NCBI GenBank assembly: GCA_027490255.1 | Contig: JAIXYM010000038.1 | Coordinates: 6,233-70,232, forward strand | Direction: 5' to 3' | DNA from: Oxalobacteraceae bacterium | GTDB lineage: Bacteria > Pseudomonadota > Gammaproteobacteria > Burkholderiales > Burkholderiaceae_D | DNA: 64,000 nucleotides | Shown here: positions 34,692-50,302 of the stretch, one piece after another | Layout of the letters: every line of letters starts with the position of its first letter | How positions within the stretch are numbered: the first letter of the stretch is position 1 | Notes under the pieces: model-generated | What the model saw: the letters and a program-made list of their open reading frames with translations, nothing else | What the model was told of the DNA's origin: nothing | Databases searched by the model: none | Made by a program: the position numbers and the translations under genes

Positions 34692-35945
34692 TCAGCGATC
34701 AATCTCGCCGAACACGATGTCCTGGGTACCAATAATCGTTACTGCGTCAGCGATCATGTGCCCTTTCGCCATTTCATTGAGTCCCTGCAGGTGCGCATAA
34801 CCAGGCGCACGTATCTTCAGTCGGTAAGGCTTGTTCGCGCCGTCGGATACCAGATAGATACCAAACTCGCCTTTGGGATGCTCTACCGCTGCATAGGCCT
34901 CACCCTCAGGCACATGAAAACCTTCGGTGAATAACTTGAAGTGGTGAATCAGCTCTTCCATGTTCGACTTCATGTCGACGCGTGACGGCGGTGCGACCTT
35001 GTGGTTATCGCTCATCACCGGACCAGGATGATTGCGCAGCCATTCGATACATTGCTTGATGATGCGATTGGACTGACGCATTTCTTCAATACGAACCAGA
35101 TAGCGGTCATAGCAATCACCATTCACGCCGACGGGAATGTCGAAATCCATCAGGTCATAGACTTCGTAGGGCTGCTTCTTGCGCAAATCCCAGGCAATGC
35201 CCGAACCACGCAGCATGGGGCCGGTAAAGCCCATCGCCAGCGCACGTTCAGGTGATACGACACCGATACCTACTAGTCGCTGTTTCCAGATACGGTTGTC
35301 CGTCAGCAGTGTCTCGTATTCATCAACATAAGTCGGGAAACGATTGGTAAAGTCCTCAACGAAATCGAGCAAAGAACCCTGGCGATTTTCATTCAACCGA
35401 GCCATCGCCTTGTCATTGCGAATCAAGGATGCGGTGTACTGTGGCATGCTCTCCGGCAGGTCACGATAGACACCACCGGGACGGTAATAAGCAGCGTGCA
35501 GGCGCGCACCCGACACAGCTTCATAGCAATCCATTAGATCTTCACGCTCGCGGAAGGCGTAAAGGAACACGCCCATCGCACCCACGTCAAGCGCGTGCGC
35601 GCCCAACCACAGCAGATGATTCAGAAGACGAGTTATCTCATCAAACATCACGCGAATGTATTGCGCGCGCAGCGGTACTTCCAAGCCAAGTAGCTTCTCA
35701 ATGGCCATCACATACGCATGCTCATTGCACATCATCGATACATAATCGAGACGATCCATGTAGGGCACGGACTGCAGATAGGTACGCGTTTCAGCCAGTT
35801 TCTCGGTCGCGCGATGCAACAAGCCGATATGCGGATCAGCGCGCTGAATTACCTCGCCATCGAGTTCCAGCACTAGACGCAACACCCCATGCGCAGCAGG
35901 ATGCTGAGGGCCAAAATTGAGGGTGTAGTTCTTGATTTCAGCCAC
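34692..35945 (-). CDS. nuoD: NADH-quinone oxidoreductase subunit D
   Basis: [35 protein letters not shown]. The functional start is GTG at 35945 (417 aa), with an SD (GGAG) supplied by the upstream repeat spacer. Confidence 0.97.
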
Positions 35946-36235
35946 GACGCATCTCCCGCAACAAAACTTTGTTGCGCAGACCGGTGTATCTCTCAATTTC
36001 GGTGCAGGCTAACTTCGCGCTAGCGAAGTTAAGCGCACATCGCGCGCGGCCGGAGCCAAAATTGAGCGTGTAGTTCTTGATTTCAGCCACGATGCATCTC
36101 CCGCAACACAACTTTGTTACGCAGACCGGTGTATCTCTCAATTTCGGTGCAGGCTAACTTCGCGCTAGCGAAGTTAAGCGCGCATCGCGCGCGGCCGGAG
36201 CCAAAATTTAAGGTGTAGTTTTTTATCTCAGCCAT
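35911..36235 (-). repeat. Tandem array with a 145-bp period: three copies of the first 35 nt of nuoD separated by two 110-bp hairpin-rich spacers
   Basis: nuoD-start copies at 36201-36235, 36056-36090 and 35911-35945. Spacers 36091-36200 and 35946-36055 differ at 4 of 110 positions. Confidence 0.97.
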
Positions 36236-36237
36236 GA

Positions 36238-36834
36238 TTATTTCACCCCGTAATTCTCTTCGCGAATCACGCGCGGCACGTTTTCGCGCGGCTCGATAGT
36301 GACTGGCTGATAAATCACACGCTTTTGCTCAGGGTCGTAGCGCATCTCGACATAACCGCTGACAGGAAAATCTTTGCGGAACGGATGACCAATAAAACCA
36401 TAATCGGTGAGGATACGTCGCAGGTCATCGTGACCTTCAAACAAGATGCCAAACAAATCGAAGGCTTCACGCTCGTACCAATTAGCGGAGTTCCACAAAT
36501 CACTTACCGAGGGAGCCACAGGCAAATCATCATCGGGGGCAAAGGTACGCACACGAAGGCGCCAGTTGTGGGTGACGGACATCAGGTGCGAAACGACAGC
36601 GAAGCGCGCACCATGCCATGCACCATCACCATAGGATTCGTAATCGACACCGCACAGATCGAGCAATTGCTCAAAACGCAGCGAGGCATGGTCACGCAGG
36701 CTTTGCATCACCGACAAATATTCGGCCGCAGCCACAACGACTGTGATTTCGCCGAGCGCGACTGATACCGAACGGACGCGATCACCCAAGACTTCTTGAA
36801 GCGCCGATTCCAGTGTTACAAGTTTGGTTGTCAT
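36238..36834 (-). CDS. nuoC: NADH-quinone oxidoreductase subunit C
   Basis: [45 protein letters not shown]. Confidence 0.97.
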
Positions 36835-36851
36835 GATCCTGGCTTATCGTT

Positions 36852-47945: not shown

Positions 47946-48110
47946 GAAAAGATGGCTGAACACACACCGCCCATCGGCTGCCAACTAATAACAATTAATA
48001 CGGCACAAAATATTCTGAATAGCTCATTATTTTTTTTAATAATTTTATAAACTTAAAATAAATTTTTAGCAAAATATTTAGTTATCTATTTTTCATTCAG
48101 GCACAATTTA

Positions 48111-49805
48111 ATGCCAAAATTTCCCACTCAAACTTCAAGTCAAGCGCTCGAGATATACATAAAAGAAATACAACGTGGAAATGAGGTCAGGGTCTCAAGA
48201 AAAACCAATCGCATCTACAAAGCCAATTTGGTTGATAAATTGATTTTAAAAATCGATCAAAAATTTTTTGACGGCACTCAAGCGTCACTTTGGCGCGCCG
48301 AGGCAAAAATGTCCATCATCAATAAATTTTCAGACGAGTGTGCTTTGGTTCAACCTAAAATGACCCGCACAGAAAATTCATTGGTCAGGACATCACTATT
48401 TTCTGAGTGGGACAATTCAGAATTCGATAAAAAAACCGTCGACGATATAAAAGATAAATTTTTAATATCTGTAAATACCAACTCAAAAACACATGAAAAT
48501 ATAAAAAAAATCTTAGAAAACGATATTAATCCAAATGAGTATTTTTTCAAAGAAGCAATTAAAAAAGGTAAGGATTTTGACTTTGCTGTTGAGTTATCAA
48601 AAAAAGCTAATTCATTAAAAGGAAATCTTGGGCTACCAAAAAACTATATTTTTCACCTCACCTATAACGCACAACTTCTCCAAAAAAAGCATAATTTTTC
48701 AATCGGCGAATGTGTCAACATAATCCAATGTTCAGATCGGCTTGTTACCAAGCACAGGATAAACGAATCCGAAGCGCTTTCCTTTGCAATTGATTTGAAA
48801 GAGCCACTAAATTCAATGAATTTGAGTTTTGATGATATTTCGTCGATAGCACGATCAATTTTTCATAACGGCAGTTTTTCCGAAAAAACCAAAATAAGTG
48901 CAGCGCTTGCTTATTGCCAATTGAAAAATTTGGGTAAAGATCATGAGCAATCAATGTCCATCATAAAAAAACGTATCGACAACCTTAAACATATTGCACT
49001 CCAGCTACCAAAGGGCTGTAAGGCAGAATGCATTCATCAAGGCGCACATATACGCGGCAGATTCAAACTTACCCCCGATGAGATAGCAAGCTGCGAAAGC
49101 AAACTAAATTCACTTAAGCCAGACCAAGCCATCAACCAGGAAAAAGGATTAACGGAAAAATTCGGATCAATGAGCGCGCAATTCGGAAAAGACATAAGAC
49201 GCATGAATTATCAATTCCTTAAAAATGGAAAAACCGCTCCTGAGGTTCGATCACTAATTCCAAATGACACAAAATTGAACATCGGATCAACCGATCAAGA
49301 AAAAGAATCATGGGTAAGAAGTTTCATCGACTATGCAGGTGGGGAAAATGCAGCAAACGTACTTTCTGCTTTCATATCTCAAACCATGTTTGGCGATATA
49401 AGAACAGTTACAGCATCTTCGAATAGTAAAGATCTATCTGTTCAATTTACGGGACAACTGGGCACGGATAATTTCAATTTTTTAGTTGACCAAACGGAAG
49501 TTAATAAAGTGCGTAAAACTTTGGTGAAAGCAACACAATTTATCAATCCGATGAAGATGACAAGTACAAACTTGAACCAAAATGACTATCTTCCAGACGC
49601 TACCGCAGAATTTAAACTGATATCCGCCATTGGAAATGATCAACGCGCAACACCCACTGCCTTTGGTGCAAAGTATGAATGCGAGCTCGAGTTCGATGCA
49701 GAAAAACTTCAGCAACAAATTGTTGACTTCACAATAAAGCGAATTGTCGCGGAATTTGATCTGGTACTTGACCAAGATAACGTCGATCGCTACTTTGAAA
49801 AGTAG
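48111..49805 (+). CDS. Hypothetical protein, 564 aa, in the AT-rich island
   Basis: Long ORF in AT-rich DNA, where a chance ORF of this length is unlikely; degenerate ~21-aa repeats and a C-terminal domain related to the 369-aa ORF. Confidence 0.85.
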   Translation: MPKFPTQTSSQALEIYIKEIQRGNEVRVSRKTNRIYKANLVDKLILKIDQKFFDGTQASLWRAEAKMSIINKFSDECALVQPKMTRTENSLVRTSLFSEWDNSEFDKKTVDDIKDKFLISVNTNSKTHENIKKILENDINPNEYFFKEAIKKGKDFDFAVELSKKANSLKGNLGLPKNYIFHLTYNAQLLQKKHNFSIGECVNIIQCSDRLVTKHRINESEALSFAIDLKEPLNSMNLSFDDISSIARSIFHNGSFSEKTKISAALAYCQLKNLGKDHEQSMSIIKKRIDNLKHIALQLPKGCKAECIHQGAHIRGRFKLTPDEIASCESKLNSLKPDQAINQEKGLTEKFGSMSAQFGKDIRRMNYQFLKNGKTAPEVRSLIPNDTKLNIGSTDQEKESWVRSFIDYAGGENAANVLSAFISQTMFGDIRTVTASSNSKDLSVQFTGQLGTDNFNFLVDQTEVNKVRKTLVKATQFINPMKMTSTNLNQNDYLPDATAEFKLISAIGNDQRATPTAFGAKYECELEFDAEKLQQQIVDFTIKRIVAEFDLVLDQDNVDRYFEK

Positions 49806-49844
49806 AAATACTGTAGAGATTCACTGATTCAGCAAGGTGCTTGT

Positions 49845-50302
49845 ACGGCACGGGAGGCCGTAAAAAAAGCTGCACCCGCGTGCAGCTTTTAGGCCGAGCG
49901 CGGTGCGCGCGTTTTCGCGCGCGCCGCATGATGCCGGTTGAAGGTAGCAAAGACTTAGTTCTTCGATTGATCGACGAGTTTGTTCTTTGCAATCCACGGC
50001 ACGGGAGGCCGTAAAAAAGCTGCACCTGCGTGCAGCTTTTAGGCCGAGCGCGGGGTGCGCTTGCAAGCGCATCCCGCATGATGCCGGTTGAACTTAGCAG
50101 GAGCTTAGTTCTTCGACTGATCTACCAACTTGTTTTTAGCAATCCACGGCACGGGAGGCCGTAAAAAAAGCCACCCCTGAGGGTGGCTTTTAGGCCGAGC
50201 GCGGTGCGCGCATTTTCGCGCGCGCCGCATGATGCCGGTTGAAGGTAGCAAAGACTTAGTTCTTCGATTGATCGACAAGTTTATTCTTGGCAATCCAAGG
50301 CA
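49845..50302 (-). repeat. Tandem array (periods 151/150/151 bp) of ilvC 3'-end copies plus two-hairpin spacers
   Basis: The real ilvC end (stop 50256-58) is followed by copies encoding [14 protein letters not shown] with stops at 50105-07 and 49955-57. There are three spacers, each with a 28-nt GC hairpin and a terminator-type hairpin. Confidence 0.97.

Follow-up and report, generated by a model that had tools for sequence, protein, structure and literature searches.

Integrative islands target gene ends, such as the 3' ends of tRNA genes and the 5' end of dusA, and restore them. Mycobacterial interspersed repetitive units (MIRUs) carry small open reading frames (ORFs) whose ends reach into the adjoining genes of an operon (PMC3184786). 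Alternative pairing of repeats in transformation can create tandem duplications (PMC3784515), and in homology-facilitated illegitimate recombination one side is anchored by homology and the opposite side joined at a microhomology (PMC3240628). Two tandem arrays were analysed here in a 64,000-nt stretch of DNA from an Oxalobacteraceae bacterium (GenBank assembly GCA_027490255.1, contig JAIXYM010000038.1, positions 6,233 to 70,232 of the forward strand), called the window below. One array lies at the 5' end of nuoD, the other at the 3' end of ilvC, and in both the unit is made of a copy of the gene terminus and a spacer of about 110 nt. Both arrays are probably polymorphic minisatellites that straddle the boundary of an essential gene, the gene itself staying intact as spare copies of its terminus accumulate next to it; we hold this reading at somewhat better than even.

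The likeness to the variable-number tandem repeats (VNTRs) of the MIRU type in Mycobacterium lies in tandem units within operons, in a copy number that varies between strains and, at nuoC/nuoD only, in a unit ORF overlapping the flanking stop and start codons (28 of 28 distinct units, with the TGA inside GTGGCTGA). The units described here differ in being longer (145-151 nt against 40-100 nt), in including the terminus of the neighbouring gene itself, in having direct repeats of 36 nt rather than 4 nt, and in that the nuoD unit holds a separate dispersed hairpin element, termed element E. [quoted passage not shown] Known MITEs, however, have short target duplications of fixed length, whereas E has either none or one of 13-54 nt, and we know of no parent insertion sequence for it. 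With integrative islands the arrays share a direct repeat of a gene terminus around the insert and a gene rebuilt from the incoming copy, but here no integrase was found, the repeats enclose no cargo, the insert measures only some 110 nt and the length of the repeat is variable. Illegitimate recombination facilitated by homology (PMC3240628) would give a silent copy, a foreign piece and a working copy, with the copies differing as orthologues do; the described cases of such recombination and of transformation-borne duplication differ in being laboratory events or duplications of 100-900 kb. The features combine known kinds, an intergenic VNTR and a MITE-like repeat.

Tandem Repeats Finder (TRF) reported one array at 35910-36238 (period 145, 2.3 copies, 93% matches) and another at 49845-50302 (period 150, 3.0 copies, 81% matches), and a separate repeat search of the window returned the same units at both loci. 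Both arrays were tiled by Logan unitigs of independent metagenomes, from runs of two studies, with 0 mismatches inside the arrays; one A>G difference, at position 49649, falls beyond the ilvC array. Unitig depth was about twice that of the flanks at nodes common to two units and 1x on the paths between units. Since the tiling is exact and depth is doubled at the shared nodes, both arrays are real and are not assembly artefacts, which bears out the tandem gene-end and spacer units that a preliminary description of this DNA had given for the nuoD 5' and ilvC 3' ends. Scaffolding artefacts do occur among relatives (cited below by L numbers): in the public metagenome scaffolds L088, L092 and L096, runs of 100 N between identical 55-nt stretches mimic extra repeat units, and the duplicate at 1591 in L096 and the N-gap duplicates of L088 and L092 were rejected as real units. 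For the window an origin of the arrays in strain variants collapsed or stacked by the assembler is barely credible, because its unit order is reproduced exactly in the unitigs of both studies, with the depths just given. When more distant runs were compared with the window, only a mixture of variant unitigs was obtained. The spacers of the two loci do not align, as the same description had stated; BLAST placed the ilvC spacer only at ilvC (2.05 Mb of sequence), and the nuoD spacer belongs to another family.

At nuoD the 145-nt unit consists of 36 nt (codons 1-12 of nuoD) and a 109-nt spacer. All genes of both loci lie on the minus strand, and the order from 5' to 3' is the nuoC stop, 2 nt, an ATG with codons 2-12, a spacer, a GTG with its codons, a second spacer, and the GTG of the working nuoD. 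The gene nuoC occupies 36238-36834 (NCBIfam NF004730, E 2e-108), its TAA at 36238-36240 standing 2 nt from the first, silent nuoD start, and the working nuoD occupies 34692-35945 (GTG start 35943-35945; 417 aa; NCBIfam NF004739, E 2e-198). Silent copy 1 (36200-36235; ATG GCT GAG ATA AAA AAC TAC ACC TTA AAT TTT GGC) has an allele resembling the working nuoD start of L098 and L106, two relatives with an empty site. It is followed by the first copy of E (36142-36206; covariance model R1, 91 bits, E 8e-26), the first 7 nt of which overlap the end of the silent copy, and by linker 1 (36091-36141), which begins with TTGAG, an inversion of the CTCAA found in the gene copy, and has GGGAG as its Shine-Dalgarno sequence at 36098-36102. 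Silent copy 2 (36055-36090) has a GTG start and is followed by the second copy of E (35997-36061; R1, 87 bits, E 1.5e-24) and by linker 2 (35946-35996), whose GGGAG at 35953-35957 serves the working nuoD start. GGGAG sits seven nucleotides upstream of the GTG in each spacer, and the linker, of some 45-50 nt, supplies both this sequence and the start codon. The nuoD start is thus directly duplicated over 36-38 nt on either side of a 109-nt insert located after codon 12. Two other ideas were considered and rejected: descent of the spacer from a diverged nuoC tail by plain tandem duplication (just one 17-nt GC-rich match was found), and a breakpoint marked by the import of nuoC through recombination (NuoC evolves fast everywhere).

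Because the unit is 145 nt long (3n+1), a 50-codon ORF runs from each silent start to a TGA in the next GTGGCTGA. Relay ORF 1 (36083-36235) opens at the ATG 2 nt past the stop codon of nuoC and closes at a TGA overlapping the start that follows, and relay ORF 2 (35938-36090) begins at silent copy 2. In the 28 distinct nuoD units collected from relatives the relay frame was always open and the length always exactly 145 nt, while the other two frames soon run into stops and the peptide encoded by the linker shows no conservation; this combination points to selection for a ribosome relay rather than for a protein. The relay ORF would pass ribosomes from nuoC to nuoD. The right arm of E pairs with the nuoD copy that follows, so that both the Shine-Dalgarno sequence and the start codon are enclosed.

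Relatives were collected in a scan anchored on polynucleotide phosphorylase (PNPase) with one genome per species, which gave 80 loci and placed the window in a freshwater Oxalobacteraceae clade. Tandem repeats met within genes in L003 (84 nt), L006 (72 nt) and the L014 group (108 nt) are unrelated to the arrays and were set aside. In most of the Oxalobacteraceae scanned, nuoD starts 2-3 nt past nuoC; L002 has one nuoD unit and L041 a decayed one. Contigs encoding identical NuoB (L097-L106) were also compared: no unit is present in L098, L101-L104 and L106, one (as in L002) in L097, L099, L100 and L105, and two are found in the window, L121 and L137. Exact empty sites (nuoC stop, TC, ATG of nuoD) occur in L098, L101, L103, L104 and L106 and, as such sites exist, E and its linker are judged to be foreign to the nuoD locus. 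In L102 the junction carries an 11-nt microduplication at about 3591-3603 (AAATAA ATG AAATAATC ATG), which resembles a hybrid of two junction types seen in other strains. Other genera have nuoC-nuoD spacers of 127-141 nt (L011, 16796-16922; L049, 21709-21849) that are unrelated or distantly related to the one described here and hold an ORF of about 40 codons ending at or beside the nuoD start.

E is a 65-nt element of three helices and forms the common part of a dispersed family. One helix is the stem that closes the element, TTTTGGC/ACCGAAA (GCCGAAA in the consensus); the second is a GC-rich hairpin that varies, and the third the hairpin CTTAACTTCGC-N4-GCGAAGTTAG, which is invariant; the closing stem, TTTTGGC/GCCGAAA in its consensus form and extendable to CAATTTTGG/CCGAAATTG, makes up the imperfect terminal inverted repeats. 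Over 97 distinct sequences 93.8% of the cells were paired against 29-53% in slid controls, and 16 pairs were compensatory. Nothing relevant was returned for E from the Rfam covariance models up to E 10, no match was found in PLSDB plasmids or in viral contigs, and a literature search by sequence string and by topic yielded no paper relevant to the spacers or to E. From these comparisons E is taken to be an uncatalogued family of structured repeats in Burkholderiales. A scan of metagenome contigs for the E hairpin gave 87 stretches, and among 80 classified loci 30 lay in a nuoB/C/D context and 50 did not, the latter representing 47 distinct contexts. The hosts are Burkholderiales metagenomes, and the placements, in intergenic DNA, operons and rRNA intervening sequences and in both orientations, include 23S rRNA intervening sequences, sites after terminators, a site upstream of guaB, and sites downstream of argG, metK and argF. 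In L108, L116, L138, L142, L147, L159, L163, L171, L180 and L182 E stands at the tip of the intervening-sequence hairpin of 23S rRNA, and in these genes of other Burkholderiales it runs antisense to the rRNA. In the window together with 1.6 Mb of sequence from relatives, model R1 found E solely at nuoC/nuoD.

Direct repeats of 13-54 nt flank E in about 9 of the 47 distinct non-nuo contexts, and most copies of E have none; where E is flanked by repeats, their length is 13, 35, 36, 40, 45, 49, 50 or 54 nt. In four of these contexts the repeat is a copy of a gene terminus: it covers 49 nt at the 3' end of metK, 50 nt at the 3' end of argF, 40 nt in the 5' half of a tRNA-Ser gene and 35 nt across the 5' untranslated region (UTR) and start of a yciA-like gene. 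Every E-linked duplication has the same order: one repeat, then E, then a linker particular to the locus, then the second repeat. Silent metK and argF copies, with 4 and 9 differences respectively, show only synonymous changes in their conserved part, and the native nuoD sequence CTCAATTTTGGC matches the left end of E over about 10 nt, the linker beginning with its inverted copy.

These placements bear on the explanation offered in the preliminary description, that small non-autonomous cassettes with their own copy of a gene terminus integrate repeatedly, by a recombinase acting in trans or by RecA, and displace the former working end outward. The dispersed and structured nature of E, the rebuilt termini of nuoD, metK, argF, the tRNA-Ser gene and the yciA-like gene beside it, the synonymous differences in metK and argF and the match of the nuoD site to its left end all speak for such cassettes, and the idea of a hairpin element that inserts at core genes and rebuilds their termini holds to that extent. 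It does not extend to one element at both loci, as the ilvC spacer is not dispersed and was found at ilvC alone in the 2.05 Mb searched. We consider the cassette explanation unlikely: direct repeats of 13-54 nt, or in most copies none, are unlike the product of an enzyme with a fixed stagger or a core site; no recombinase was found nearby among the window ORFs scanned, and E was not found in viral contigs; in 1.6 Mb of related sequence E is confined to nuoC/nuoD; and the nuoD unit is a single old insertion that several lineages have in common, higher-GC ones among them, rather than a set of repeated hits, with silent copies that decay.

At the other locus the working ilvC (50256-51272; 338 aa; NCBIfam NF004017, E 4e-171) ends in the repeated terminus of unit 1 (50256-50297, TGG...AAC TAA). 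The unit consists of 42 nt, in which the final 13 sense codons (W...N) are followed by the stop, or about 47 nt with the preceding shared TGCCN, and of a spacer of about 108 nt. Some 17 nt past the stop of the unit lies GGCATCAT, which pairs with ATGATGCC in ilvC just upstream of the repeat, and in each unit it is followed by a GC-rich hairpin and then by a hairpin with A- and T-tracts. In spacer 1 (50147-50255; RNA fold -75.7 kcal/mol, z -5.0) these are hairpin 1 at about 50201-50228 and a putative terminator hairpin at 50163-50191, before the tail CGGCCTCCCGTGCCG. Silent terminus copy 2 (50105-50146; 8 synonymous changes relative to the working copy) leads into spacer 2 (49997-50104), which has a hairpin 1 of another type (GCGCTTGCAAGCGC, as in L006) and the terminator stem GCTGCAC/GTGCAGC. 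The GCGCGC/GCGCGC stem that had been ascribed to the spacers of both loci is therefore not a feature of ilvC unit 2. Silent copy 3 (49955-49996; 3 synonymous changes) leads into spacer 3 (49846-49954), which ends in ...CCCGTGCCG, then TACAAG. TGCCGT in the tail of spacer 3 is a 6-nt microhomology with ATGCCKTGG of the gene and, because the last unit runs into TACAAG, the boundary of the repeat falls within this 6-nt homology (TGCCKT). In the fold, hairpin 2 has an 11-bp stem followed by U7 and looks like a two-way terminator. A consensus terminator scan found none at the ilvC spacer, though the hairpin and U-tract are visible, probably because pairing of the A- and T-tracts lengthens the stem. 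An Rfam search with the spacers gave nothing relevant, and the ilvC spacer looks like the gene's own 3' UTR and terminator.

Contigs encoding identical IlvC carry 1 to 3 units, each of 150-151 nt. Together with the 0, 1 or 2 units at nuoD, this confirms the variation in unit number between close relatives at fixed junctions that had been predicted. Extra copies of the ilvC terminus at a spacing of 144-151 nt were found in L006, L016, L032, L033 and L053, a stub of 10-15 nt of a second copy in L002, L003 and L041, and a single-copy spacer with no duplication in L015, L030 and L095. The junction ...GTGCCN/TGGAT is homologous across genera, which suggests one origin for the ilvC array. The units are mosaics of swappable modules: the gene-end allele, a 15-mer after the stop, a hairpin 1 of one of two types and one of several stems for the terminator. 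Their order is a,b,c in the window and b,c,a in L093 as assembled in a metagenome contig, and the allele class of copy 2 (b-like), silent in the window, forms the working end in seven contigs (L087, L088, L090-L093 and L096).

The strong hairpin and U-tract of each ilvC unit, with a stem that varies compensatorily across units and strains (GCCACCC/GGGTGGC, GCTGCAC/GTGCAGC, GCCACAT/ATGTGGC), would also suit arrays that are kept by selection, stacked two-way terminators insulating ilvC from the convergent AT-rich genes beyond it and a structured leader with its relay ORF tuning the translation of NuoD. The strict conservation of length and frame in the nuoD unit and the pairing of E with the next gene copy around the ribosome-binding signals agree with this. 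Close relatives with 0 or 1 unit are nevertheless common, so that the extra units are dispensable, and the silent gene-end copies have no evident role; selection of this kind is considered quite improbable as the explanation of the arrays.

All differences among the gene-end copies of the window are silent: ATG/GTG, GAG/GAA, ATA/ATC, AAA/AAG, TTA/CTC and ACG/ACC at nuoD, and at ilvC 8 and 3 changes that lie in third positions or in Leu codons. For ilvC the synonymous count was made by an identity-based scan able to detect decayed copies, and in it the silent copies of the window's population, L006, L032 and L033 differed from the working copy only synonymously in the coding part. The synonymous-only pattern put forward for both loci stands for the window and not in general: in L016 the silent copy at ilvC shows K to N together with a 1-nt deletion (frameshift), N to K occurs in about half of the silent nuoD copies of relatives, and L177, L120 and L133 show further decay. 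Where they are not refreshed, silent copies decay. Between strains the ilvC bodies differ by 4-12%, all synonymously, and the last 45 nt by up to 22%, for which reason the silent copies look like alleles taken from different strains. Of the further claim that each copy had probably once been a working end, the part that plain decay in place does not explain the copies was upheld for ilvC, where allele classes that work in some strains are silent in others (a,b,c against b,c,a). In a population of great diversity, recombination would keep supplying silent copies from among the working alleles, and after a contraction any silent copy could become the working end; differences would then be synonymous because the copies are redrawn from working alleles and may again serve as the gene end. 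As to variation by a diversity-generating retroelement or from silent cassettes, the differences are synonymous, and the scanned ORFs of the window included no reverse transcriptase or directed recombination genes.

An AT-rich block (46836-49805; 32-43% GC) separates psd from the ilvC array. It has two ORFs on the plus strand, 46836-47945 and 48111-49805, for which NCBIfam, Pfam and PADLOC gave no match. All conspecific contigs contain the pair, with hypervariable lengths (369-427 aa and 552-622 aa) and at least 3 sequence variants. These genes had been suggested as cargo of the element. The direct repeats, however, enclose nothing but the spacer of about 110 nt, the AT-rich genes being outside, past the last unit; and since the same two-gene block follows arrays of 1, 2 or 3 units and is joined to them at three different points, they are not cargo. 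No recombinase or transposase domain was found in the scanned window ORFs of at least 150 aa, the nuoE-N block (22.9-34.7 kb) lying outside the scan, and within that scope the absence of a recombinase gene noted earlier is confirmed.

The minisatellite reading would work as follows. At ilvC one old tandem duplication at a short homology (TGCCNT) would have started the array, and homologous recombination within and between strains would then expand, contract and reshuffle its units. At nuoD recombination between the two start copies would excise the insert cleanly and give the empty sites, and unequal crossing-over would add a unit, as in the two of the window. Repeated integration by a recombinase is accordingly not needed, an old duplication with unequal crossing-over and exchange between strains accounting for the arrays. 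The arrays are richer than a slippage repeat. One cassette system at two loci is not supported. As to how E was first inserted with a duplication, the preferred route would be copy-choice, or illegitimate recombination of the one-sided kind, at a mimic of the left end of E (CAATTTTGGC), and true transposition with a long, variable stagger would be an alternative way for E and its linker to enter with a 36-nt duplication.

Several points weigh against the minisatellite reading. Recombination alone does not explain the origin of the nuoD insert, because the empty sites show E and its linker to be foreign there. An exact 13-mer flanking repeat is expected about 0.001 times per locus by chance (130 x 212 positions / 4^13) and, with repeats of 13-54 nt at about 9 of 47 sites, it seems that duplication is promoted or required by E itself. 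The distal ilvC unit of L016 and of L033 has the species-typical terminator, and the proximal unit of L033 resembles a unit of another species; the distal unit thus looks resident and the proximal one imported, which is what displacement by incoming cassettes also predicts. Finally, unit lengths cluster at 138-151 nt across unrelated loci without explanation; lengths of 138, 140-141, 144, 145, 148, 150 and 151 nt were recorded among the window arrays, L121, L137, L143, L165, L190, L053 and L032. A broader proposal would make E the core of an undescribed kind of non-autonomous Burkholderiales element that enters mimics of its left end, often just within the termini of closely packed housekeeping genes, by a duplicating mechanism (copy-choice or recombination, with target repeats of 13-54 nt), rebuilds the interrupted end and leaves a relay ORF in operons, the ilvC arrays being the footprint of a second, locus-bound element that behaves alike. 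It is entertained here as a doubtful proposal, with perhaps one chance in its favour to three against.

Three further features of the window were recorded. A tRNA gene lies between secG and nuoA at 37977-38058 on the minus strand (Rfam tRNA, 50 bits). The octamer GATACCCC (gene strand) is repeated 3.6 times at 51311-51339, within the spacer between ilvH and ilvC and just upstream of where ilvC starts. At 62030-62180 a 24-nt inverted repeat (GACCCCGGCCTCCGCCGGGGTGAC and its complement) surrounds 3.8 copies of a 25-nt repeat (CGGCTTTCCCATCGTCA..), and this may be another small structured repeat element.

Both arrays can be used as strain-typing markers for the freshwater lineage. Silent gene fragments in a highly recombining population can look as though they were under purifying selection without having a function, which calls for caution in inference based on dN/dS. 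The link of E to long target duplications is unusual and makes the element a tractable lead for a new insertion mechanism. In the nuo operon the duplication of the gene end, together with the relay ORF, lets a packed operon tolerate an insertion between genes that lie 2 nt apart.

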